Positions 3,333 to 20,821 of a stretch of 22,714 nt of DNA are shown here, piece by piece; positions within the stretch are counted from its first letter, which is position 1; each line of letters opens with the position of its first letter. The notes beneath the pieces are model-generated. The model was not told the DNA's origin. It saw only the letters and a list, made by a program, of their open reading frames with translations, and made no database searches. A program made the translations under genes and the position numbers. The DNA comes from an uncultured virus (IMG/VR IMGVR_UViG_3300037264_003342) (Duplodnaviria > Heunggongvirae > Uroviricota > Caudoviricetes). The DNA lies in IMG/VR virus record IMGVR_UViG_3300037264_003342, one strand, 5' to 3'.

Positions 3333-4643
3333 ATGAAAATCGAACTGACGATCAAGACGACGTACTTGCCCGAGTGGGGTGTCTGGGAAGGCATCCGAGA
3401 GCTGGTGCAGAACGGCAAGGACGCCGAAACCGAGTTCGGCGCTCCGCTCACGGTGCGCCACCGAGCCGAGAGCAACACGCTCGTCATCGAGAACGAGGGC
3501 ACGGTGCTCCCGCACGAGGCTCTGCTCCTCGGCTACACGAGCAAGACCGACCGAAGCGACATGATCGGCAAGTTCGGCGAGGGCCTCAAGCTCGGCATCC
3601 TCGCGCTCGTGCGCAAGGGCATCAAGGTCAAGATCCGCTCCGGCTCCGAGGTCTGGGTGCCGGCCATCGTGCGCAGCGAGAAGTTCGACGCTGATGTGCT
3701 CGCGTTCACGATCTACACAGGCCGCGAGGACAAGTCGCGCGTCTCGGTCGAGATCGGCGGAGTCGACAAGGACATCTGGACGACCATCAAGTCGAAGTTC
3801 CTCTTCCTCACGCCGCCAAAGGACGCCATCAAAACCTACCACGGCTCGATCCTTCCGGGCGCTGACTACCTCGGCAAACTCTACGTCAAGGGAATCCTCG
3901 TCCAGCAGAACGCGCCGTACCAGTACGGATACGATCTGAATGGTGTCGAGGTCGACCGCGACCGCAAGATGATCGACCAGGCGTCGCTCAAGTGGCGCTT
4001 GTGCTCGATCTGGAGAGACGCGCTCTCGGCCCGGCCTGAGATGACCAACGAGTTCCTGCGGCTCTTGGACGCCCAAGCGCAAGACCTCGACGGCTTGGAC
4101 AACTACACGGCCAAGCAGCTCCCCGAGGGCGTCCGCAAGGACATCGCCGCTCGCTTCTGTGAGCAGCACGGAGCCGAGGCCGTGCCGGTGACAAACCTCG
4201 CCGAGAGCGCCGAGGTTGGGCACCTCGGAGCCAACGGGGTCGTCTGCCCGCCGTCGCTCCGGGCCATCCTCGAAGCTGAGATCGGCACGGTCGCGGAGCA
4301 GAAGCAGAAGCTCGCCAACATGCCGAAGCACAACTACTCGTGGAGCGAGCTGACCACGGCCGAGCGGGCGAGCCTGGAGAGCGCGCTCGCGCTCGTGAGC
4401 GGAGAGGCCGAGGTCACGCTCGCGGATGTCGACGTGTGCGACTTCCGCGACGAAGACTTGGGTGGCCTCTACAACGGGCGCGTGCTCATCGCCAAGAAGA
4501 AGCTCGCCGACCAGGACGAGACGCTCAAGGTGCTCGTTCACGAGACGGCCCACAAGCAGGGGCACGACGGCGAGAAGAGCCACGTCGCCGAGATCGAGCG
4601 CATCTGGAGTGGTATCGTCGCGAAGCTGCGGAGGGCGTCGTGA
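3333..4643 (+). CDS. GHKL-type ATPase with C-terminal HExxH zinc-metallopeptidase-like domain
   Basis: AGGAGG RBS; N-box IRELVQNGKDA, G-box IGKFGEGLKLG; C-terminal LVHETAH...HDG..H; strong GC3 codon bias. Confidence 0.8.
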   Translation: MKIELTIKTTYLPEWGVWEGIRELVQNGKDAETEFGAPLTVRHRAESNTLVIENEGTVLPHEALLLGYTSKTDRSDMIGKFGEGLKLGILALVRKGIKVKIRSGSEVWVPAIVRSEKFDADVLAFTIYTGREDKSRVSVEIGGVDKDIWTTIKSKFLFLTPPKDAIKTYHGSILPGADYLGKLYVKGILVQQNAPYQYGYDLNGVEVDRDRKMIDQASLKWRLCSIWRDALSARPEMTNEFLRLLDAQAQDLDGLDNYTAKQLPEGVRKDIAARFCEQHGAEAVPVTNLAESAEVGHLGANGVVCPPSLRAILEAEIGTVAEQKQKLANMPKHNYSWSELTTAERASLESALALVSGEAEVTLADVDVCDFRDEDLGGLYNGRVLIAKKKLADQDETLKVLVHETAHKQGHDGEKSHVAEIERIWSGIVAKLRRAS

Positions 4644-6986: not shown

Positions 6987-7113
6987 ATGACCGAGGTCTA
7001 CGTCAGCGTCGACATCGAGGCCGACGGCCCCATCGCACGTCGCTGTCGACGACGCGGTCGAGCAGGGCCGGATGTTCTTCAAGATGCTGGAGCGCCGCAG
7101 AGCGGAGCGCTAG
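6987..7113 (+). pseudogene. DEDDh 3'-5' exonuclease (Rv2179c-like) remnant with large internal deletion and frameshift
   Basis: 6987-7034 encodes the ExoI motif MTEVYVSVDIEADGPI. After one extra base, 7036-7113 encodes the ExoIII motif HVAVDDAVEQGRMFFKMLERRRAER*. The middle of the gene is absent. Confidence 0.75.
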
Positions 7114-7835
7114 GGCATCTGCGACGGGTGCGTCTTCGGCCTCGGGAGGTACAACACCGACACTATTGCTGTCGTGCCCGCAACAAGCCGAGCTTCGCAG
7201 CGCTCTCCAGACTGCAGCGAGGGGGCTATGCCGTTGGCTGCAGCGTAAGAGTCTGGACCAACGACCACACTCCCTAATTTGAGTGTCGGAAATCCCTCTT
7301 TAACAAGTCGAAATTCAACGGTTGCTCCTCCGAGTCCTCCAAACACCACGATAGCGAACCCGAGCAAGCTCAAGATTTGACCAGCCGAGCTTTCAGGAAA
7401 AACACTCTTCCACTCGGAGTCGATCTTCGTTCTTTCGCGTTTCACTGAAACATCACTGAAGGTTGCGAAGACGTTCACGCGATCCCCGACTGACGACGGC
7501 AGGATGGTGGCCGTTACGAATTCGTCGCTCAAGATAGGAAAAGGCGCATTGACGAATTGGTTATTCTGCGCAGTAAGTGTACCGGACCCAATGTTCGACG
7601 GCCCATCGGGGTCTACTACTTCGACTCTGAAGTCGATCGGAGAGGCCGTCGGATTGAAGAGCAAGACGCCTGTGCTCTCAAACGAGACGCCAGTGCCTAC
7701 ACCTCGCAAGTAACCCGAATTCGCGGATGGGGGTTCAACGATCGTCTTCGTCACGGGCGCAGAGCCGCGCAGAAGCTCGAAGACGCGCGTCTCCGATGGG
7801 AAGCTCAGGATGCTGCTGTGGAGGAGGCCGGACAT
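7110..7835 (-). CDS. Two-domain beta-sandwich (jelly-roll-like) protein, paralogue of 8939-9706; probable virion protein
   Basis: Alternating beta-strand pattern. Aligns by eye with 8939-9706 (VNVFATFSDV.VKRERT vs INAFASAADL...KRPRT; GGATVEFRLVK vs GGPSETRFRLLK; LQSGERCEARL vs LYKGDAIQAKL). Lower GC than neighbours. Confidence 0.7.
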   Translation of the reverse strand: MSGLLHSSILSFPSETRVFELLRGSAPVTKTIVEPPSANSGYLRGVGTGVSFESTGVLLFNPTASPIDFRVEVVDPDGPSNIGSGTLTAQNNQFVNAPFPILSDEFVTATILPSSVGDRVNVFATFSDVSVKRERTKIDSEWKSVFPESSAGQILSLLGFAIVVFGGLGGATVEFRLVKEGFPTLKLGSVVVGPDSYAAANGIAPSLQSGERCEARLVAGTTAIVSVLYLPRPKTHPSQMP

Positions 7836-8938: not shown

Positions 8939-9706
8939 TCACAGGTTCGGCTTCTGCATCTCGATGTACGGCATGAAGGTCACGACCTTGCGACCAGGAG
9001 TGAGCAGCTTCGCTTGGATTGCGTCGCCTTTGTAGAGCTTCACACCGAGCAGAACATTGGAAAGCCGGTCGTACACTCCGGCTACCTGGAAGACGTCGGA
9101 GATCTCCAAGCTCTCTCCGCTTGCCTTGAGCAGCCTGAACCTCGTCTCGCTTGGTCCTCCAGCAGCGGTCGCAATTCCAGCTATCTGTGCCCCCTGATTA
9201 CCAAGGGGTACGTGAACGAGCGAATCGACGCTCGGACCAGGAAGCACGGTCACGTACTCGGTCGTGTCCACCACAGTACGTGGGCGCTTGAGCGGATCAC
9301 GAGGAAGATCAGCCGCTGATGCGAATGCATTGATCGCCGCACCCGGAGCGCTCGTTCCTTTGAGAACGATGTCGATATGCTCATCGTCGCTCATCAGCAC
9401 GGTGAAGTACGGAACAATCAGCGAATTTGGGCCAGGTCCACCTAAGCTGAACAGATCGAAAGTTCCTTCTGGTGTTACGAGGCGAAGTGCTACGTCGGAG
9501 CTTTCCGCCTGTCTGTTCGCAACGGCAACAACTGTCGACTGTTCGTCAACAGGCCCAAACGAGCTGCTGGGTTCACCCTGCAAAAGTCTCAGACGGCTTG
9601 GCGGCGGGCTCTCTACAAGAACCGCACTGACATCGCTCGGGACCGCCCCTACGAGCCTGAGCGAGTTTGAGTAGGGCCTCGCGTTTCCGATGCTGTGCCA
9701 CGTCAT
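8939..9706 (-). CDS. Two-domain beta-sandwich (jelly-roll-like) protein, paralogue of 7110-7835
   Basis: ATG 9706 lies just after the upstream TGA; MTWHSIG...; by-eye alignment with 7110-7835 over the full length. Confidence 0.7.
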   Translation of the reverse strand: MTWHSIGNARPYSNSLRLVGAVPSDVSAVLVESPPPSRLRLLQGEPSSSFGPVDEQSTVVAVANRQAESSDVALRLVTPEGTFDLFSLGGPGPNSLIVPYFTVLMSDDEHIDIVLKGTSAPGAAINAFASAADLPRDPLKRPRTVVDTTEYVTVLPGPSVDSLVHVPLGNQGAQIAGIATAAGGPSETRFRLLKASGESLEISDVFQVAGVYDRLSNVLLGVKLYKGDAIQAKLLTPGRKVVTFMPYIEMQKPNL

Positions 9707-9708
9707 CT

Positions 9709-10095
9709 TCAGGACACCCGCTCGGCCGAGACGTTCAGGACGTTCTTGTCGATGCCCTTGAGGTAGTTGAGGAGACACACTCTGGCTTCCTCCTTGATCG
9801 GCCCGAGAATGTCGTGCTTCCACGACGCGACGAACACCGCGACGATCGTCGACCCCGACATGGTGGCTCCTCCGGGTTTCGTTTTGACATCGGGGAAGGT
9901 TGGGCAGAGCGTGCCGCGCACGGCAAGAATCGAGTTGATCAGCGCATCCACGGCTTCTCCCGTGGGGCCCGTCTTCATCTGGATCCTGATGACGAGGTTC
10001 CCGAGCTTCTCCTGCGCTTCAGCTCGTTTCGTGTACCAGAGGAGCAAGGTGCCCGCGCCGAGCCACCAGAAGAGGTTGGGAATTTTGCGTGCCAT
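9709..10095 (-). CDS. N-terminally membrane-anchored protein
   Basis: AGGAG RBS; LFWWLGAGTLLLWY hydrophobic segment then soluble alpha/beta domain. Confidence 0.75.
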   Translation of the reverse strand: MARKIPNLFWWLGAGTLLLWYTKRAEAQEKLGNLVIRIQMKTGPTGEAVDALINSILAVRGTLCPTFPDVKTKPGGATMSGSTIVAVFVASWKHDILGPIKEEARVCLLNYLKGIDKNVLNVSAERVS

Positions 10096-10104
10096 GATGT
10101 TCTC

Positions 10105-10365
10105 CTACCTGCTCAATTTCTCGTAGTCCGACCGAGAAATGTTGTGAAGCCTTAGTCGCGAGCCAGGACGATCTGACTCAGGCTCTACCGACGCCAGCAC
10201 ACCCGTTCGGCGATCTTCGAGAGCGCTTTCCTCGGTCATGCTGATGACGTCTTTCCATGCCTGGTATGCTGCCTCAAAATTCACCGTGACCGTGGTGACG
10301 TGGCCCTTGTGCGTGACGAAGTAGACGTTCGGTTTTCCACCGTCTCCGACCATCTCGGTCGCCAA
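10105..10365 (-). CDS. Hypothetical protein (start uncertain: TTG 10365 or a downstream ATG)
   Basis: Globular-looking GGKPNVYFVT...SALEDRRTGVLASVEP; fills the gap in the - strand gene string. Confidence 0.6.
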   Translation of the reverse strand: MATEMVGDGGKPNVYFVTHKGHVTTVTVNFEAAYQAWKDVISMTEESALEDRRTGVLASVEPESDRPGSRLRLHNISRSDYEKLSR

Positions 10366-10393
10366 CTTGTCGAGCGCTCTGATCGCCTCGGAA

Positions 10394-10423
10394 AGCCTAC
10401 CTGAAGTGGCTCGTGCCTGTCTA
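10394..10423 (-). promoter_or_regulatory. sigma70-like promoter TAGACA-18-TAGGCT
   Basis: Located upstream of 10105-10365; same spacing and -10 type as the 8675 and 20154 promoters. Confidence 0.45.
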
Positions 10424-10603
10424 CGTTCCCACCTTCGACGTGCGGAGCGTGCGTAGCTCTTCGGTCACGCCCTGCAGCGCACTGAGGGCCCGCTCACGAT
10501 CCTCGACGGCCTTCTGCTCAAGCTCGCGCAGCTCTCGGTCAAGAGTGTCCGAGCGCTTCTTCTTGCGGGAGGGGAGGAACTTTCGGATGAAACCGTTCTT
10601 CAC
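10421..10603 (-). CDS. Small basic coiled-coil protein (60 aa)
   Basis: GTGA coupling to 10600-10851; RKKKR followed by heptad-like helix. Confidence 0.6.
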   Translation of the reverse strand: MKNGFIRKFLPSRKKKRSDTLDRELRELEQKAVEDRERALSALQGVTEELRTLRTSKVGT

Positions 10604-10851
10604 GACGTCTGCGAATTACGCCCCCGAAGGCCTTCGACCACGTCACGTAGTACATCCCTCGTCGCATAGGCAAGCTCCAGGTACTTCTCGGTTCCGCGCT
10701 GCAGATCTTGGGCCCGCTGCTCGCGCAGGCCCTTGGCGTCGTCGAGCGCCTCCTCGACAGACCGGAGCAGCCGCTCGCGGTCCCACAAGAGGTAGGCGAT
10801 GATGGAGTACGGACCCCCTTTGGTGACGAGATCGAGAATGAGGTCGGCCAC
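10600..10851 (-). CDS. Small protein with N-terminal hydrophobic segment and coiled coil; possible holin-like protein
   Basis: LILDLVTKGGPYSIIAYLLW then amphipathic helix; architecture resembles single-TM holin-like proteins (inference only). Confidence 0.55.
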   Translation of the reverse strand: MADLILDLVTKGGPYSIIAYLLWDRERLLRSVEEALDDAKGLREQRAQDLQRGTEKYLELAYATRDVLRDVVEGLRGRNSQTS

Positions 10852-10876
10852 CTAGCGTACTTTCCCGAGAGGGGTT

Positions 10877-10919
10877 CCACGCCCAGGGGGCGGCCGGAGC
10901 CGACCCCCCAGAGGCGTGG
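10877..10919 (-). promoter_or_regulatory. GC-rich 5'-UTR hairpin capped by a cUCCGg tetraloop
   Basis: CCACGCC (10877-83) pairs with GGCGTGG (10913-19); inner GGGGGCGGC/GCCGACCCCC; on the - strand the loop reads C-UCCG-G. Confidence 0.55.
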
Positions 10920-10929
10920 TTCCATGCCC

Positions 10930-10958
10930 AGAGTAGGGCACTTCGATCTCTGAGCCAA
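10930..10958 (-). promoter_or_regulatory. sigma70-like promoter TTGGCT-17-TACTCT
   Basis: In the divergent intergenic region, pointing through the hairpin to gene 10600-10851. Confidence 0.45.
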
Positions 10959-11019
10959 GCTCCCCTTGCAATCCCGCGAGGACTCGTACAGAGTGAGCTT
11001 GTTCCCCTGTAGGAACCTC

Positions 11020-11460
11020 GTGAGCAAGTCAGAACTCACTGTCAGGATTCAGGCCGAGCCCGAGCGCGGCATCGAGGGGAATCGCTTCCTCGCGAAACAG
11101 CAGTTCACAAGCGAGCTGTACTACGTCGTCGTGCTCGCCGATGGCGTGCCAGTGGGGCAGCAGAGCGTATTCCATCGCGGGTTTCGCTGGTGGGTCGACG
11201 ACTCGTTCATCGCGAAGGCTTATCGCGGCGGCGACGCGTTACGCGTGCTCCGAGAGACCGTCTGCCGGTTCGTCGCTGAGCGGAGCGACTACTACCTGGC
11301 GTCGATCGACTACGTAGTCGCCTCGCCAGAGAAGGTGCTCGATCGCCCTGCGCACCGAGAACTCGGCATCACCGTCGAGCCTCTTGCTTTGCGACGTAGC
11401 GCGGGGATATACCGCTACAACGTGAGCGCACTACGACCGGCTCTCCAAGCCACGGGGTAA
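11020..11460 (+). CDS. GNAT-like acetyltransferase-fold protein, cassette copy 1 (gene A1)
   Basis: AGGA RBS before GTG 11020; YVVVLADGVPVGQ...WWVDDSFIAKAYRGGDALRVLRE resembles GNAT beta2-beta4/motif A; paralogue of 12641-13078. Confidence 0.65.
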   Translation: MSKSELTVRIQAEPERGIEGNRFLAKQQFTSELYYVVVLADGVPVGQQSVFHRGFRWWVDDSFIAKAYRGGDALRVLRETVCRFVAERSDYYLASIDYVVASPEKVLDRPAHRELGITVEPLALRRSAGIYRYNVSALRPALQATG

Positions 11461-11463
11461 TCC

Positions 11464-12405
11464 ATGAACGAACCGCTACAGAAAAGAGCAGGCAACAACA
11501 TCGGCGTGAGCCCGGCCTTCTGGTCGGGCTACCAGCAGCACGTCGATGCGAACTTCCTCAAGCTCGAAAACACCGACACGGTGTTGTGGGAGGGCGTCGA
11601 GGGCTGCGTCCGGTGCCCCGGCGGAACGAAGCCGAAGAATCCGGGGATTCTGCTCACGAAGGATGCGACCCTCGGGAACATCGAAGTTCTCATCGTCTTC
11701 ATCGATCACCAGGGCAACGAGTTCGTGATCGGCGACGGTGGCATGCTGACAGGCGACGGCACTGGATTCATCTTCATCGACGGAGTGCCCGCCGGCAAGC
11801 TCGGGCTCGCGCCCTTCGGCCTGTGCCCCGGCGAAAAGATCGTCGCGCGAGTCGTCATCACGGGCATGCCGCCGAGCGTCCTTCCGAACGGCAAGGTCAT
11901 CATCGTTCCCTACACGAAGGACATCAAGTCGAAGGGCGGCGGCAAAGGCGGCCTCTCCGACGGTGGGGCGCTCTGCCAGCGTGCCCAGGTCGTCAACGGG
12001 GCCGGAGCCACGTTCGGGCCGAGAGCCGGAACGACGTGGGAAGAGCCTTCCTGGTTCGGCTCTACCGCAGGGGGCGGAGGTTTCGGCGGCGGGCTGATGA
12101 TCTCGAACGCCGACCCGACGGCCGACGCCGAACTCGTCGTCTGCTACGTCGCGCCGGACGGCACCGAGTTCCCGGTCGTTCCCGGTGGCGGCGTGGTCCT
12201 CGTGCCGCCGAAGGCGATCTTCAACGTGGCCGGGTTCTTCGGGTGGTTTGAACCACTCTCAGAACTCCGAAGCTACATCCAGTACCCGCAGAAGCTCCGA
12301 GTGAAGTTCGCTCCGGGAGAGCCAGTCCCCGCAGGCCGCGTCGAGGCTCTGCTCATGGTGCTCGAAAACGACATCGCGCCAGATCTCGTGGAGGTGGTAC
12401 CGTGA
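11464..12405 (+). CDS. Two-domain beta-sandwich protein, cassette copy 1 (gene B1)
   Basis: Internal duplication (IVFIDHQGNEF / VCYVAPDGTEF; LCPGEKIVARV / IQYPQKLRVKF) joined by GGGKGGLSDGG; paralogue of 13101-14048. Confidence 0.8.
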   Translation: MNEPLQKRAGNNIGVSPAFWSGYQQHVDANFLKLENTDTVLWEGVEGCVRCPGGTKPKNPGILLTKDATLGNIEVLIVFIDHQGNEFVIGDGGMLTGDGTGFIFIDGVPAGKLGLAPFGLCPGEKIVARVVITGMPPSVLPNGKVIIVPYTKDIKSKGGGKGGLSDGGALCQRAQVVNGAGATFGPRAGTTWEEPSWFGSTAGGGGFGGGLMISNADPTADAELVVCYVAPDGTEFPVVPGGGVVLVPPKAIFNVAGFFGWFEPLSELRSYIQYPQKLRVKFAPGEPVPAGRVEALLMVLENDIAPDLVEVVP

Positions 12406-12644
12406 GGCAATTCGATCCCCAGAAGCCGAACAAGGGCCGAGCGCTCCTGACGCTCCGCCAAGGCAAGAAGCTCAACACCGCACAGGCAGACCTCGAAGAG
12501 GCCTGTCGGTTCCTCTGCGCGGCCGGCTGCAGCTACCAGCGGTGTCGCGCAGAACTCCTCGCAGGGGGCTACACCGCTGCCGAGGCCGACGCGCTCTTGA
12601 ACTCCTGCTACCCGACGCTGCCGATCGTCCCGCCGCCTCCGTGA
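12402..12644 (+). CDS. Small Cys-rich helical protein ending CYPTLPIVPPPP, cassette copy 1 (gene C1)
   Basis: GGAGG RBS, GTGA couplings at both ends; C-x3-C-x3-C-x4-C...C; paralogue of 14053-14307. Confidence 0.8.
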   Translation: MRQFDPQKPNKGRALLTLRQGKKLNTAQADLEEACRFLCAAGCSYQRCRAELLAGGYTAAEADALLNSCYPTLPIVPPPP

Positions 12645-13078
12645 GCCCATCGCTCACAGTGAGGATTCAGGCCGAACCTGAACCCGCCATCGAGGGCAAC
12701 GAGTTCATCGCTCTGCAGCCTTTCGCAACCGAGGCCCACTACGTCATCGTGCTTGCCGATGGAGTCCCCGTCGCGCAGCAGAGCTTCTACCATCGCGGGT
12801 TCCGCTGGTGGGTCGACGACCTCTTCGTCGCGAAGGCCTACCGAGGAACCGACGTCATCCGCGTCTTGCGCGAGGCGACGCACCGAGCCGTCGCAGAACA
12901 CACGGACGTCTTTCGAGCCTACATCCGGTCGGAGGTAGCGACCTCGGAGCGCGTCTTGAACGATCCGATCAAGCGCAACGACGGCGTCGTGGTCACACTC
13001 GTGTCCCAGCGTCGAGGAGTTGCGCTCTACGAGTACGATGTGCGAAGCTTGCGACTGCCTCTAGCAGCCAGCGCATAG
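12641..13078 (+). CDS. GNAT-like acetyltransferase-fold protein, cassette copy 2 (gene A2)
   Basis: GTG overlaps C1 stop; LTVRIQAEPE..IEGN and HRGFRWWVDD.F.AKAYRG shared with A1. Confidence 0.7.
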   Translation: MSPSLTVRIQAEPEPAIEGNEFIALQPFATEAHYVIVLADGVPVAQQSFYHRGFRWWVDDLFVAKAYRGTDVIRVLREATHRAVAEHTDVFRAYIRSEVATSERVLNDPIKRNDGVVVTLVSQRRGVALYEYDVRSLRLPLAASA

Positions 13079-13100
13079 AAAACCGAGGGAGAGACGACAC

Positions 13101-14048
13101 ATGGCACCACCCAACAAACCACTCGAAAAGCGCGCCGGCCGCAACATCGGCCTGAGCCCCATCGGCGGCCCGCAGTCGGCGTACCAGCAGTACGTCGGCG
13201 CGCCCGTCCTCAAGCTCAACGACAACGACACGGTGCTCTGGGAAGGCGTCGCAGGCTCCGTGCGAGCTTTGCGCGGCACCCTGCCGAAGTTCTGTGGGCT
13301 CTTGCTCTCGAACGACGACACGCTCCACATCTGCCTCAACCTCATCTTCGTCGACAAGCAGGGCAACGAATTCGAGATCGGCTTCGGCGAACTGCCGGCT
13401 GGTGACGGTGTGGGATTTCTCGCCCTCTTTCTCGATTTCGGTCCCGTCAGCGAAGGCCTCTGGCCCTTCGTCCTCTGCGAGGGCGAGAAGGTCATCGCGC
13501 GGATCTTCGTCGGTGACGACTGCGTTCCCCCGAACGGCAAGGTCGTCGTCGTCCCCTACAGCAAGGACTACAAGATCAAGGGAGGCGGCAAGGGCGGCCT
13601 CTCCGACGGTGGAGTGCTCTGCCTGCGCGGCCAGGTTCCGCCCTCAGGCGGCCTCGTCTTGGGTCCACCCCCAGGCATCACCTGGGAGGAGCTGAACACC
13701 ATCGGCGGCATCGCAGGTGGTGGCGGAGCCTTCGGGGGATCTCATGTGAGCAACTCCTCGGTCGGCGGCCCTCCCGCCGAACTCGTGGCTTCCCTCATCG
13801 CTCCCGACGGCACCGAGTACGAAGCAGTGGAGTTCATTGCTCCCCCAGGCGAGATCACCAGCATCGAGGCCTCCATCTCCTTCACCTTCTTCCCGCTGCC
13901 GAGCCTCTTCGCGGCCGGCTACCTGCAGCACCCGGCCAAGATCAAGTACAAGTTCAAGACCGGCAGCCCGCTCCCGACGGGGCGCGTGGACATCCTCGGC
14001 CTCGTCGGCGAGAACGACGTCGCCCCCGACCTGACCCAGGAGGCATGA
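13101..14048 (+). CDS. Two-domain beta-sandwich protein, cassette copy 2 (gene B2)
   Basis: Shares PL.KRAG.NIG.SP, DTVLWEGV.G.VR, QGNEF, PNGKV..VPY.KD, GGGKGGLSDGG, APDGTE and END.APDL with B1. Confidence 0.8.
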   Translation: MAPPNKPLEKRAGRNIGLSPIGGPQSAYQQYVGAPVLKLNDNDTVLWEGVAGSVRALRGTLPKFCGLLLSNDDTLHICLNLIFVDKQGNEFEIGFGELPAGDGVGFLALFLDFGPVSEGLWPFVLCEGEKVIARIFVGDDCVPPNGKVVVVPYSKDYKIKGGGKGGLSDGGVLCLRGQVPPSGGLVLGPPPGITWEELNTIGGIAGGGGAFGGSHVSNSSVGGPPAELVASLIAPDGTEYEAVEFIAPPGEITSIEASISFTFFPLPSLFAAGYLQHPAKIKYKFKTGSPLPTGRVDILGLVGENDVAPDLTQEA

Positions 14049-14052
14049 GAAC

Positions 14053-14307
14053 ATGACGACCCACTTCATCGTATTCGATCCAGCGAAGCCGAACCAGCAG
14101 ATGGCTCTGCTCACGCTTCGCTACGCGAAGCCGAACAACACTCCGGCAGCAACCGTCACGGCGGCTTGCAGGTACCTCTGCGCGACGGGGTGCAACTACG
14201 AGAACTGCGTCAAGGCGCTCGTGGCCGGCGGCTACACGCAAGCCGAAGCCTTGGCCATGGTCACGGCCTGCTATCCGACGCTGCCGATCGTCCCGCCGCC
14301 GCCGTAG
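14053..14307 (+). CDS. Small Cys-rich helical protein ending CYPTLPIVPPPP, cassette copy 2 (gene C2)
   Basis: Shares FDP.KPN...ALLTLR, ACR.LCA.GC.Y..C...L.AGGYT.AEA and CYPTLPIVPPPP with C1. Confidence 0.8.
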   Translation: MTTHFIVFDPAKPNQQMALLTLRYAKPNNTPAATVTAACRYLCATGCNYENCVKALVAGGYTQAEALAMVTACYPTLPIVPPPP

Positions 14308-14337
14308 TCGTCGCTGCGCTCTGAAGCGCCGGAGCCG

Positions 14338-14616
14338 CTACACGCCTGAAGCTTCTGAGCCAACGCCCTGCAGCGTTGGGAGATGATCCAACACCGTATG
14401 GTTGCGCGGCATGTGCTCGTCGTGCTTTGGGTCTGCATTCTGCGCTCGATCGTCGCAAGGGCTGCAGACGAAAGCTTGGCAGCCGTAGCAGTAGTCGTAG
14501 CCGTCACAAACGGCGTCGCATAGCCCGCACGAGCCCGACATCGAGGCGCACCCGCAGAACTCTTTCGGGTCGTCGCAGCGCGGACAGCGCTCGATCTCGG
14601 CGGCAGGAGTGGTCAT
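14338..14616 (-). CDS. Cys-rich Zn-finger protein
   Basis: ATGA coupling; CPRC, CGC, CGLC, CYGC, CSPC and a later His. Confidence 0.65.
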   Translation of the reverse strand: MTTPAAEIERCPRCDDPKEFCGCASMSGSCGLCDAVCDGYDYCYGCQAFVCSPCDDRAQNADPKHDEHMPRNHTVLDHLPTLQGVGSEASGV

Positions 14617-14786
14617 CCGAACTTCTTCTTGTCGAGCGCCTTCTCGCGCTCGCGCACGAGCCGCGTGTACGTCTGATCGGGCAGGATGTCCTTGAGCTTC
14701 TTCGCAGCTCGCTGGTCACCCTGGTCGAAATGCCGAAGGAGGCCAAAGAAGGCGGTGACGGCTTCGATGATGGTCGCGAGGCTCAT
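14613..14786 (-). CDS. Small protein with N-terminal amphipathic/hydrophobic helix (57 aa)
   Basis: GGAGG RBS; ATG overlaps the lipoprotein stop; MSLATIIEAVTAFFGLLRHF then charged tail. Confidence 0.65.
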   Translation of the reverse strand: MSLATIIEAVTAFFGLLRHFDQGDQRAAKKLKDILPDQTYTRLVREREKALDKKKFG

Positions 14787-17015: not shown

Positions 17016-17711
17016 CTACGGCTGGACTTCTTCGACGACGACGCGCACGAGGCGCGCGATGCCGGTGAAGGTGTCGGTGCCGCTCTTGCGCTGGATGAAC
17101 ATTCGCAGAGCTTCCCCCGACAGGATCCCGTCGAGGTCGGCCGCAGGCACGGTCAAGCTAGCTTCTTGAATCCGCTCTGGAGTGCCGGAGGCAGCTTGCG
17201 CCACGAAATCGACGAGCGTGTCGAAATCGTCAACGTCGAGGTTGGTCGGCGAGACATCGGCCTCGAAAGCGACTCCCCAAATCACCGTCCCCACGTCAAC
17301 ACTCGACGGTGCCCAGAAGACGCGCACCTTGAGGCTCGACCCTACGGTGTACCCCGCTGGCATGAACTTCTGCCACGGAATGCCTCGTGGGTTGCCGCCG
17401 GCAACGAAGTTCAAGATGGCGTGTGTGCCTCTCGTTCCTGCGGCCGGAAGCGGAATGACTCCTCCGATGTTGACGGCCTTGAACACCGCGTCGACCGCGT
17501 CGGCCTGGAACGACACGTTGTTCACGAAGTCGGGATTCTTCCAGGCTACCCCGATGACGGTTCCCGACGGCCCGACGGCTGTTGGGTCGGCGACGAGGAC
17601 TTGGTCATCGGCTCCTACCGGAACGCGTTCGAGGTCGCCGTTCACATCGACGACGTAGAGGTCGCCCACAGTCGTTGCGACGCCGAGAGATCCTGTTCGA
17701 GCGGCTACCAT
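17016..17711 (-). CDS. Fibre/spike-like protein: same N-module as 16458-17012, head paralogous to 17724-18245
   Basis: GGAGG RBS; TTVGDLY.....LERVPVGADDQVLVADP...W; head DAVF...VFW...GTVIWGVAF...IQEASL...DG...IQRK..DT...ARLVRVVVEE. Confidence 0.7.
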   Translation of the reverse strand: MVAARTGSLGVATTVGDLYVVDVNGDLERVPVGADDQVLVADPTAVGPSGTVIGVAWKNPDFVNNVSFQADAVDAVFKAVNIGGVIPLPAAGTRGTHAILNFVAGGNPRGIPWQKFMPAGYTVGSSLKVRVFWAPSSVDVGTVIWGVAFEADVSPTNLDVDDFDTLVDFVAQAASGTPERIQEASLTVPAADLDGILSGEALRMFIQRKSGTDTFTGIARLVRVVVEEVQP

Positions 17712-17723
17712 GTCAGTCCTCCG

Positions 17724-18245
17724 TCATTCCCGCACAGTAACACGAAGCAACTGTGCTGTATCTGCCATCGTGTCTTGCCCGTTCGTACCCTTACGACGGA
17801 CGCGAATTTTGTAGGGGTCTGCAGGAGTTACCCCGTCAGCCTCGACCTGGGAGAAGATCACCGTGGCCTGGCGGATGTCCCCATTCACTGCAGGTGCAGT
17901 CGAGAGCACTGTCTTCTCTGGAGCTGCGGGCCTCGTGATGGCGTCGCCATCCCGCTGTCGAGTCCACGCAACTCCCCAGAGCACGTCCCCAGCAACTGCC
18001 ACGGCCGCGAGCCAGAACAAATTCAGAACCAAGAGCCCACCGTTGTAGCCGTTGTCGACGGCTCCCTCGTAGAGCACGTTTCGGTCGACTGCGGCCGGGA
18101 ACGTGACGAGCGGCACATCGGCTCGCTTCACGATGCCGGCCGGATCTGCCGTCGGGAACACGGCGTCGATGCCGTCGTAGGCGACGAGATCTCCGGCCGG
18201 AGACACAGGAGACGGCGAGGGCGTGAAGGTGAACTTCGGCATCAC
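17724..18245 (-). CDS. Single beta-sandwich (jelly-roll-like) virion protein
   Basis: DAVF...LFW...GDVLWGVAW...IRQATV...DG...VRRK..DT...AQLLRVTVRE aligns with the head of 17016-17711. Confidence 0.7.
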   Translation of the reverse strand: MMPKFTFTPSPSPVSPAGDLVAYDGIDAVFPTADPAGIVKRADVPLVTFPAAVDRNVLYEGAVDNGYNGGLLVLNLFWLAAVAVAGDVLWGVAWTRQRDGDAITRPAAPEKTVLSTAPAVNGDIRQATVIFSQVEADGVTPADPYKIRVRRKGTNGQDTMADTAQLLRVTVRE

Positions 18246-18547
18246 CGAGTCAAGCTGTGGTTGAGGTCAGTCTCGACAAAGCACGGGTCGACTCCAACCT
18301 GTGTGAAGTTCACGCGGATCTTGTTTCCAGATCTCCCTGCGTACGTCGCGAGCGGTACTGACGTACCAAGAGCCCAGACTCGGATCGTGAGCCAGGTGTC
18401 GACGATGAACTCACCGTTTGGGATGAGCTTCGCGAACTTCACGAGATCGATGCCGCAGTCGAACTCGTTCACCCCGTTGACGGGCACCCCAGTGCCCGAG
18501 GCGTGCATGACTCCGTTCGGCGTCGGGGTGAGGTTGGGGAAGCTCAC
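18242..18547 (-). CDS. Small beta-rich probable virion protein
   Basis: GAGGAG RBS before GTG; GTGA coupling to the downstream gene. Confidence 0.7.
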   Translation of the reverse strand: MSFPNLTPTPNGVMHASGTGVPVNGVNEFDCGIDLVKFAKLIPNGEFIVDTWLTIRVWALGTSVPLATYAGRSGNKIRVNFTQVGVDPCFVETDLNHSLTR

Positions 18548-18623
18548 GAACGCTCCTCGACGAGGTTGCTGCGCAACCTGCTCGGCGCTTCGGGTGCGCC
18601 GTCAGTCAAAACCTCTGCCGCTC

Positions 18624-18809
18624 CTAGCGGCAGACGGTCTTGACGAACGGGTGCGACACGTACGTGAGGCCGTGGCGCTTGACGGCCTTCGGCTGCTTGC
18701 GCAGACACACGAAGCCCTGGCCACGTCCCTTGGTCGACACCTTGACCGCCGTCGGCGGGCAACCGCATCGTCCTCCCTTGCGCCGCGCTTTCTTCTTTCT
18801 CCTCGCCAT
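18624..18809 (-). CDS. Small highly basic 4-Cys protein (paralogue 1)
   Basis: GGGAG RBS; MARRKKKARRKGGRCGCPPTAVKVSTKGRGQGFVCLRK...PFVKTVCR. Confidence 0.7.
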   Translation of the reverse strand: MARRKKKARRKGGRCGCPPTAVKVSTKGRGQGFVCLRKQPKAVKRHGLTYVSHPFVKTVCR

Positions 18810-18811
18810 GA

Positions 18812-18979
18812 TCATGTCTCCCGGCAGATTGCCTTCACGAAGGGTCGGAATCTCCGGCCCTTTTTCGACACCTTGAACGTCTTGGACTGGCACGTCCAGC
18901 CTCGGCCGCGACCCTTGGTCGTGACGCGCTCGGACCCGAGCGGGCACCCACAGCCGTTCCAGCTCCGACGCTTGCGCAC
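18812..18979 (-). CDS. Small highly basic 4-Cys protein (paralogue 2)
   Basis: MRKRRSWNGCGCPLGSERVTTKGRGRGWTCQSKTFKVSKKGRRFRPFVKAICRET; same CGCP / TKGRG.G..C / PFVK..CR pattern as its neighbour. Confidence 0.7.
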   Translation of the reverse strand: MRKRRSWNGCGCPLGSERVTTKGRGRGWTCQSKTFKVSKKGRRFRPFVKAICRET

Positions 18980-18986
18980 TCCGTGG

Positions 18987-18995
18987 AGCCTATCA
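18987..18995 (-). promoter_or_regulatory. Extended -10 element TGATAGGCT, probably leaderless for 18812-18979
   Basis: TGn-TAGGCT in the gap after sspB; 7 nt separate it from GTG 18979. Confidence 0.45.
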
Positions 18996-19029
18996 GAAGC
19001 CGCCCCTCGGACGCCAGAGGCTCCAGAGG

Positions 19030-19470
19030 TCAGGCGACGTCGTCGCTCTTGACGAGCCGGAGCGCGGGCCTGGGGGGCTCTCGTAGGCTCGCCTGCAGAC
19101 GATCTCGCAGACTGCCACCGGAGGTGGGCCGGCGCGGTGGCTGCATGGCCACGAGCTGCTCCGGGGCCGTGAAGAACCAGATGCACTCCCGAGACTGGTC
19201 GGGTCCGAACGCTTGGACGGCTCGCCACGGGATGAAGCACTCGAAGAGGGTCAGGTTGAAGGAGAGGGTCGCCGAGATCCCCCGCGCATCCACAGCGAGG
19301 TCGTGGATGGGCTTCGCCATCCGCCGGCCGATCGCCAGGACCACGGTCTTCTCCCGCATGAGGTGCTCGGGGATCACCGCCTCCGCCGTCGCAACAACCA
19401 CCCCGACGTGCGGCTCGCTTTCGAGAGCGGCCGAGAAAGCCGCGTACTTGATCCGGTCGAGGAAGGTCAT
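19030..19470 (-). CDS. sspB: SspB-family ClpXP specificity adaptor
   Basis: IPEHL.....VVLAIG...AKPIHDLAVDARGISATLSFN...FECFIPWRAV.AF core, disordered linker and RPALRLVK matching the ClpX-binding tail (E. coli RPALRVVK). Confidence 0.8.
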   Translation of the reverse strand: MTFLDRIKYAAFSAALESEPHVGVVVATAEAVIPEHLMREKTVVLAIGRRMAKPIHDLAVDARGISATLSFNLTLFECFIPWRAVQAFGPDQSRECIWFFTAPEQLVAMQPPRRPTSGGSLRDRLQASLREPPRPALRLVKSDDVA

Positions 19471-20189: not shown

Positions 20190-20417
20190 TCACGTTTCGC
20201 CGTCACAGGGGCAAGAGCGGGTGAACTCCATCTCGGCCAAACCATCCCCGGCGCGTCGGATGGTGATGTACATCTTCATCGGCCCCGAGTAGTAGACGTG
20301 GCGCTTGTCGTTCGAGTGCTCCCGCTGGAGCTGCGCTCGGTAGCCCCGCAGGTGGTAGGGGACATCCTCGAACGGCAGACGAATTGGATCTGGCTCCATG
20401 AACGGGTTGTCGGCCAT
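20190..20417 (-). CDS. Hypothetical protein (75 aa)
   Basis: TGATG coupling, GAGG upstream. Confidence 0.6.
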   Translation of the reverse strand: MADNPFMEPDPIRLPFEDVPYHLRGYRAQLQREHSNDKRHVYYSGPMKMYITIRRAGDGLAEMEFTRSCPCDGET

Positions 20418-20821
20418 CAGCGCCGGCCCTCGTAGCCGGACGCCCAGATCTTGCCTCGGTGGACGTAGAGTGCAACGGGTCGGTACCTCTTCGAGGCTTT
20501 CGTGAGTCGAGTTGCGGCGGGCTCGGTCCAGTCGCCGTCCCAGAAGCCAGCTCCGTGCCCGTTGCGGGTCAACCAGAAATCGTGACCGGCCGCAACGTAC
20601 GGATCTGGATCTCGAAGCGTTGCGACCCGTGACTTCTTGAGCCCTCGCTCGATGTCCTTGGCATTGTCTCGCTGGAACTTCTGGGCCTCTAACTCCAGCG
20701 CTTCACGAACAGGCTTCGCGAAATCGCTGATGCCGTGGTGCTCATCCAACGGAGTCCCGTTGTCCTCTGTCTCAGACCACAATGCCGCCTCGAACATGGC
20801 CAGCGTGAAAGCGTCCATCAC
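20417..20821 (-). CDS. Phage hypothetical protein with GHDFWLTRNGHGAGFWD motif
   Basis: EAALWS and AGHDFWLTRNGHGAGFWDGDW, a motif I recall from uncharacterised phage proteins; overlaps the upstream stop. Confidence 0.75.
   Translation of the reverse strand: MMDAFTLAMFEAALWSETEDNGTPLDEHHGISDFAKPVREALELEAQKFQRDNAKDIERGLKKSRVATLRDPDPYVAAGHDFWLTRNGHGAGFWDGDWTEPAATRLTKASKRYRPVALYVHRGKIWASGYEGRR

Follow-up and report, generated by a model that had tools for sequence, protein, structure and literature searches.

Here we describe a three-gene cassette that occurs twice in tandem on a 22,714-bp stretch of DNA (the window) from the uncultured virus record IMGVR_UViG_3300037264_003342 of IMG/VR, and both copies of which are, judging from their coding sequences, under purifying selection. 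The cassette occupies positions 11020–14307 in the order A1-B1-C1-A2-B2-C2. This arrangement, reported in an earlier note made from the sequence letters, was recovered as six intact open reading frames (ORFs) on the + strand that fill exactly the span given there. Protein A represents a divergent version of the very familiar GNAT fold, B an unnamed family on a very common fold (a tandem jelly-roll-like beta-sandwich), and C, which is small and Cys-rich, is an orphan.

Divergence, age and layout of the two cassettes

The two copies are clearly homologous and considerably diverged. BLASTP comparison showed identity at 80 of 141 positions for A1 and A2 (57%, E 9e-56), 158 of 317 for B1 and B2 (50%, E 1e-68), and 42 of 71 for C1 and C2 (59%, E 4e-26), and the DNA repeats lie in register with a spacing of 1618–1663 nt. 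Blocks previously listed as invariant (HRGFRWWVDD and AKAYRG in A, GGGKGGLSDGG and DTVLWEGV in B, five aligned Cys plus CYPTLPIVPPPP in C) were all found in both copies. Nei-Gojobori dN/dS ratios between copies were 0.25 for A, 0.47 for B and 0.41 for C; as synonymous differences are near saturation (pS 0.52–0.64), these values are rough, yet all are clearly below 1. Together with the six intact frames, the ratios bear out the earlier suggestion that both copies are maintained.

Phylogenetic analysis indicates that the duplication is old. In a tree built from eight B proteins, namely the two window copies, the four close homologues and a pair of long-branched outgroups, the topology was (B1,(B2,P0002)), with supports of 97/96 and 99/97, the latter for the node joining B2 to P0002, a B protein from another contig. 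B2 sits on a long branch (1.1, compared with 0.3–0.6 for the others). The five-sequence A tree gave no resolved topology. Nonetheless, the nearest relative of A2 is P0009, at 72% identity (A2 and A1 share only ~56%), the nearest relative of B2 is P0002, at 56% identity, and both P0009 and P0002 come from the same 2861-bp contig. Because B2 groups with a foreign B and not with B1, the duplication would predate the split between the window element and the element carrying P0002, unless one cassette was exchanged as a unit. Under either history, A and B are, by these relationships, genes that moved together. The GC content of the module (63–65%) equals that of the window (63.3%).

The genes are tightly packed. 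A1 (11020–11460, + strand; GTG start, 146 aa) is separated by 3 nt from B1 (11464–12405, +; ATG start, 313 aa), which overlaps C1 (12402–12644, +; GTG start, 80 aa) by 4 nt. C1 in turn overlaps A2 (12641–13078, +; GTG start, 145 aa, N terminus MSPSLTVRIQ) by 4 nt, and gaps of 22 nt and 4 nt follow before B2 (13101–14048, +; ATG start, 315 aa) and C2 (14053–14307, +; ATG start, 84 aa), respectively, the last gene being preceded by an AGGAGG ribosome-binding site. Both overlaps read GTGA, with the start codon lying over the stop codon and, given these overlaps and the tight junctions, the six genes look like a single translationally coupled operon. The starts of A1 and A2 were set by N-terminal homology (x-x-L-T-V-R-I-Q) over five A-family members, and all six ORFs have a strong third-position GC bias (GC3 0.74–0.86).

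Upstream, a divergent intergenic region (10852–11019, +) between a - strand ORF (10600–10851) and A1 presumably contains the promoter or 5' leader of the operon. RNA folding of positions 10852–11030 gave -78.5 kcal/mol (z -3.63; 0 of 200 shuffles were equally stable), with a strong GC-rich hairpin at ~10877–10921, upstream of A1. No sigma-70-like promoter was found, and Rfam and tRNA scans of the whole window returned no match. The operon ends in a 30-nt gap (14308–14337) between C2 and a convergent - strand gene (14338–14616). No terminator-like site was called in this gap; the two such sites in the window fall inside genes and are no more numerous than in shuffled sequence. The tandem arrangement is no artefact of a single assembler, since a second assembly of the one sequencing run that contains this DNA reproduced positions 9500–14666 with 0 differences and 0 gaps; no RNA run was listed as containing it. 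That run is probably the source sample, and the agreement does not amount to independent biology.

Features and relatives of proteins A, B and C

The GNAT fold proposed earlier for A is well supported by its predicted structure (pLDDT 88.4, pTM 0.82). All 50 of the 50 Foldseek matches listed belong to the GNAT fold superfamily, including acyl-homoserine lactone (AHL) synthases, at a probability of 1.00, and the model contains the mixed alpha/beta GNAT core (beta1–beta7 with alpha3 and alpha4). Sequence similarity is fainter: the Pfam family Acetyltransf_1 matched the window copies at E 0.0043–0.18, scoring A1 at 12.6–12.9 bits and A2 at 17.8 (E 0.0043), under the cut-off of 20.7 bits. Four of the five A-family members matched this family (best E 0.0032), and an A profile reached a probable N-acetyltransferase among PDB sequences at E 0.12. 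The model is free of helices before residue 72 (DSSP), the alpha1–alpha2 helices of the acceptor site not being predicted, and residues 12–31 form a conserved acidic coil (A-E-P-E-P-x-I-E-G-N; pLDDT 74–87 in the model).

The pyrophosphate-binding loop of GNAT motif A, between beta4 and alpha3, has the consensus Q/R-x-x-G-x-G/A. All five A-family members have R-G-[TG]-[DE]-[VA]-[IL] in the beta4–alpha3 loop, which does not fit the canonical motif. An HMM alignment of A to 2fe7 paired Asp with the motif Gly and left the last Gly without a counterpart, making the loop one residue short. The Asp previously noticed in place of the usual motif-A Gly is thus part of a wider pattern, an acidic residue being invariant at this position across the five members. 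As modelled, A is built on a GNAT scaffold, with acyl-CoA binding no more than putative.

B had no match in Pfam, PHROGs, NCBIfam or PADLOC. Its AF2 model (pLDDT 63, pTM 0.69) agrees with the double beta-sandwich anticipated in the earlier note and divides B1 into an N-terminal arm (residues 1–28), an N domain (~29–150), a Gly/Lys-rich inter-domain arm (~150–170) and a C domain (~171–304). Residues 1–28 and 151–168 are disordered in the model, yet highly conserved, and each sandwich is preceded by a Gly-rich arm (L-Q-x-R-A-G-x-N-x-G and L-K-x-K-...-G-G-G-G-x-S-D-G, respectively). Profiles of the N and C halves matched each other (hhalign probability 88.5%, E 2.7e-6), hence B is, on this profile evidence, an internal duplication, and it also exists as two separate genes.

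Only four close B homologues beyond those of the window turned up in a search of 5.8 billion cluster representatives. When 1.84 billion representatives were searched with a profile of these six sequences, 58 proteins matched at E <= 1e-3, of which 54 are family-like: 23 are of two-domain size (255–373 aa; including B2, P0005, and P0063, which matches in the N half only), 15 match the N half only (129–152 aa) and 16 the C half only (143–170 aa). The other four are long repeat proteins that matched via many short stretches and were discounted. No PHROG or Pfam family was found in any of the 52 relatives scanned, and ten relatives that were looked up are singleton clusters from metagenome or NCBI sources with uninformative names.

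Across 25 B relatives, invariant or near-invariant positions comprise R8, G10, N12 and G14 in the N-terminal arm, the D-x-K-x-K...G-G-x-S-D-G arm, G-P-P-x-G-x-W, Y-P-x-K, and an E-x-D near the C terminus. Among the six close sequences, the inter-domain arm is invariant in 14 of its 21 columns, compared with 0 of 41 in segment 236–270, where 13 columns are gapped.

Structural comparisons suggest that the likeness of B to known proteins is at the level of single domains only. Against PDB, Foldseek listed bicupins, PNGase F, PHM, GH172, some double jelly-roll (DJR) capsids and XepA, all at TM <= 0.25 and with the DJR-class chains, which include the phiCjT23 capsid and STIV A223, at E 1e-4 to 4e-3; inter-domain geometry is unreliable in a model of pLDDT 63. 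Against predicted viral structures, the top rows were uncharacterised Caudovirales proteins (TMq 0.46), followed by a P-SSM2 'tail fiber-like protein' (TMq 0.40) and then by collagen-repeat, tail-fibre and minor-tail proteins. When PDB sequences were searched with profiles, whole B had 0 matches and neither half had a significant one, and in the ESM Atlas the best feature score for B was 0.78 (noise range), with structure rows under the bar.

Elsewhere in the window, a 241-aa ORF (7110–7835, - strand) possibly encodes a third tandem jelly-roll protein, related to B very remotely. The B profile matched it among six-frame ORFs of the window at E 7.5e-5 (hmmsearch), and the 25-sequence B alignment matched its residues 58–220 (hhalign 72.5%, E 3.2e-5; 8.4% with the N-half profile alone). 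It is without the conserved arms and has a weak coding signal (GC3 0.63).

The five aligned Cys of C follow the pattern C-x3-C-x3-C-x4-C plus one more Cys. C1 and C2 also share a segment A-G-G-Y-T-x-A-E-A, and the C-terminal tail CYPTLPIVPPPP is identical in both. No significant family was found in Pfam or PHROGs (best PHROG E 0.029, for C1), nor was anything below E 3 found in PDB. For an Atlas model of C2 (pTM 0.66), the short-range look-alikes were in most cases helical primase C-terminal domains of PriCT_1 type (TM 0.50–0.66), and none reached the threshold at which a family can be named. A search with C2 returned only C2 itself (4 candidates) and missed C1, which was present and is ~59–61% identical, so that it is uninformative on the distribution of C.

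Distribution of the module and its genomic context

A search with A returned five proteins in total, two of which are A1 and A2 of the window. A and B were found together on three of four other contigs (2861, 2908 and 7976 bp), where co-occurrence is deduced solely from A and B hits sitting on contigs of equal size. Hence, the earlier proposal that A, B and C are retained as a unit finds support for A and B on these contigs, but not as an obligate unit across the family, with five A proteins compared with 54 B proteins. A back-translated motif pattern found 16 loci in IMG/VR, none of which gave an hmmsearch match to the B, N-half, C-half, A or C profiles, and a second such pattern had 0 matches there. 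The A and B families were likewise not found in Joint Genome Institute (JGI) metagenome contigs or in GTDB genome contigs. The contig to which the window belongs measures 84,714 bp and was itself recovered neither from these two sets nor from IMG/VR or the phage and plasmid collections.

No described system of this composition was known to the author of the earlier note, and our results agree: no such system turned up in Pfam, PHROGs, NCBIfam or PADLOC, and full-text literature searches brought up no description of a module made of GNAT, tandem jelly-roll and Cys-rich proteins.

The genes on either side of the operon (10600–10851 and 14338–14616) are both on the - strand. The earlier note had placed the cassettes inside a - strand late region. 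ORF and GC3 evidence supports - strand flanks from ~7.1 to 22.7 kb, but the first 7.3 kb are on the + strand and nothing marks the region as late. None of the 33 window ORFs matched Pfam at E <= 0.01, and four of the 33 matched PHROGs, including one weak structural-category match (E 0.0072); for the flanks, scans with NCBIfam, PADLOC and relaxed Pfam settings contributed nothing of use.

Two of the PHROG matches connect the window to phages. The product of 3333–4643 (+, 436 aa) matched phrog_6077 (E 1.5e-60), with relatives in 113 phage records, some of them named 'histidine kinase-like ATPase', and that of 20417–20821 matched phrog_1915 (a small hypothetical protein), with relatives in 88 phage records. 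Since these two proteins have many tailed-phage homologues, the element is phage-like, albeit not a proven phage; it is prokaryotic virus-like and probably tailed-phage-like.

The N terminus of the 3333–4643 protein matched a sacsin-like/GHKL-type ATP-binding family at a score under its cut-off (NCBIfam NF047352, E 1e-6), the protein also gave a weak PADLOC match to TmtA (E 1.3e-5), and its relatives occur on four IMG/VR contigs of 88–221 kb at 46–49% identity. These four records carry no other window gene in their 21-kb loci and are not close relatives. The convergent ORF 30 nt from C2 (14338–14616, -; 92 aa) encodes a very Cys-rich protein (C-x2-C, C-x-C and similar) with no family match. 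Further along, a 628-aa + strand ORF (17166–19052) overlaps four - strand ORFs (17016–18768); GC3 is ambiguous there, and neither reading produced a family match.

Possible functions and comparison with known systems

The reading that we tentatively favour, as one possibility, is that B is a surface or assembly protein with A and C as cognate maturation factors, the two cassettes giving two specificities. It draws on the conserved arms and hypervariable loops of B, on the old, selected and (for A and B) co-inherited cassette, and on the altered loop of A. The viral look-alikes of B, the tailed-phage homologues of two window proteins and a GC content no different from that of the window are also in its favour. 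B, the core component, would oligomerise and serve the particle at its surface or in its assembly, in the manner of fibre heads, adhesins or decoration proteins. Assembly contacts would be made by its conserved arms and its C-terminal tail, and the hypervariable loops (residues 100–118 and 236–270) would face outward; all functions, contacts and particle locations named here are inferred. A may bind B or transfer an acyl group to it, with the Lys/Gly-rich inter-domain arm or the Met-Asn N terminus as plausible sites, and C may serve as a chaperone or adaptor that is made in step with B via translational coupling. This is near the earlier idea of an acyltransferase modifying its cognate virion or surface protein, and weaker on the enzymology. 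A bolder version, which we consider unlikely, is a new three-component maturation system of an uncharacterised virus lineage, in which a GNAT-fold enzyme without the canonical CoA loop would covalently modify or cross-link the Lys/Gly arms of B, with a Cys-rich adaptor, to produce two surface variants.

Several observations weigh against the favoured reading. With an acidic residue in place of Gly and a loop one residue short, the use of acyl-CoA by A is doubtful; the acyl-transfer activity suggested previously is left unsupported by this non-canonical loop and by Pfam scores under the cut-off. B has neither a fibre shaft nor a known anchor domain, and no virion, tail, packaging or lysis gene was recognisable in the window by Pfam, PHROGs or flank scans. 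Moreover, A was returned for a narrow subfamily only, so B-family proteins would generally manage without it, and C could not be traced elsewhere by the C2 search. The neighbourhood comparison in IMG/VR that had been envisaged for A-B-C did not find the family: queries with B1, the B alignments, the A alignment and P0033 recovered no A or B relative from IMG/VR viral contigs, and the four IMG/VR records sharing the ATPase-like protein, their sole link to the window, had no B match. Searches by tblastn with B1 against a phage collection and with P0013 against a plasmid collection also gave no match.

Other explanations place the module outside the particle or treat one copy as dispensable. A somewhat unlikely one is an intracellular accessory module for host take-over or counter-defence, in which A would be an acyltransferase acting on a host or defence protein, B would bind the target, C would be a cofactor and the two cassettes would address two targets. 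Some anti-CRISPR proteins are acetyltransferases of the GNAT fold (AcrVA5), which we count in its favour, and the module forms its own operon, on the strand opposite to both flanks and among small genes of unknown function, in a window where genes with phage relatives look non-structural (phrog_6077 and phrog_1915). However, none of the six proteins has a PADLOC or other family match, the CoA loop of A is non-canonical, the B family occurs mostly without A, and conserved arms with hypervariable loops in B suit an assembling protein at least equally well. The atypical loop also speaks against a GNAT toxin-antitoxin or exclusion cassette with A as the toxin and B and/or C as the antidote. This is very unlikely, as there is no antitoxin of RHH/DUF1778 type (B and C being without Pfam match) and no PADLOC hit, and B is much larger than, and unlike, known antitoxins. 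The long branch of B2 might suggest that one cassette is a decaying, non-functional duplicate, but the intact state of all six frames, dN/dS ratios of 0.25–0.47, and the closer relationship of A2 and B2 to proteins from another contig than to their in-genome paralogues, which indicates that both lineages persisted, make this extremely improbable.

Two further explanations start from the fold of B. In one, which appears quite unlikely, B would be a lysis-associated protein similar to XepA and YomS, two-domain, oligomeric and membrane-acting, with its single-domain relatives corresponding to YomS. XepA and YomS likewise represent two-domain and one-domain forms (PMC6834076), and membrane action has been proposed for XepA of PBSX. 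In opposition to this, the two-domain alignment of B with XepA has a root-mean-square deviation of 21 Å, the profile searches of PDB sequences with B and its halves found nothing significant, no neighbouring gene could be recognised as a holin, endolysin or spanin, and no lysis family was found in the 33 + 15 window ORFs scanned. The other explanation is a non-HK97 capsid, in which B would consist of fused single jelly rolls (DJR-like), the split relatives would be two single jelly-roll (SJR) capsid proteins, and the GNAT protein would belong to a structural module. This agrees with the appearance of PNGase F, PHM, GH172, the phiCjT23 capsid and STIV A223 in the Foldseek list for B, with the parallel between fused or split B and DJR or paired SJR capsids, and with the GNAT gene located between capsid and spike genes in Vinavirales (PMC9502842). 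Several of the listed DJR-class proteins belong to the cellular DJR classes treated in PMC8812541. Against this explanation, it would be strange to find two divergent capsid genes in tandem, no FtsK/HerA-type packaging ATPase occurs in the 22.7-kb window, and the window shares genes with tailed phages. In addition, contigs carrying B-family genes measure 84.7, 87.9 and 38.8 kb, a size well above that of known prokaryotic DJR viruses. Taken together, a capsid role is improbable.

For now, the module is a lead, from a hostless element of one sediment metagenome and with a proposed function. Should its proteins act as one unit, the module would contribute a GNAT variant that modifies proteins and whose cofactor loop is acidic and shortened, and would give a name to an unnamed jelly-roll family with 54 family-like hits, none of them assigned to Pfam or PHROGs. 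Members of that family occur fused and split, echoing the contrast between single and double jelly rolls in the evolution of virus capsids. Should the new maturation system described above be real, the B family, fused and split, would be an unrecognised building block of virus-like particles or appendages that is absent from present viral catalogues.

Compared with RimI (2cnm), Naa10/Ard1 and small bacterial GNATs, A is without predicted alpha1–alpha2 helices, having an acidic coil instead, and its motif-A loop is shorter by one residue and carries an acidic residue for Gly. The likeness of B to the phage cement proteins KHP40, Pam1 and GP4, to lambda J-type tail-tip proteins and to STIV A223 is of a level that the search tool calls common, as is that to VP16/VP17 of P23-77, satellite-virus capsids and TNF/C1q-like fibre heads. 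B has no shaft or anchor and no sequence similarity to viral jelly-roll head, cement and penton domains, and only the 28-residue conserved arm precedes its first domain. In Vinavirales (PM2-like viruses and Autolykiviridae), a GNAT-family gene adjoins the jelly-roll capsid and spike genes (PMC9502842). These viruses, compared here by description, have small genomes, are tailless and membrane-containing, and differ in having another gene order, no C-like gene and no duplication. XepA was the best two-domain structural neighbour of B; XepA (PBSX) and YomS (SPbeta), prophage lytic-cassette proteins (PMC6834076), share with B two beta-sandwiches joined by a linker, a length of ~280–310 aa, and the existence of single-domain relatives.

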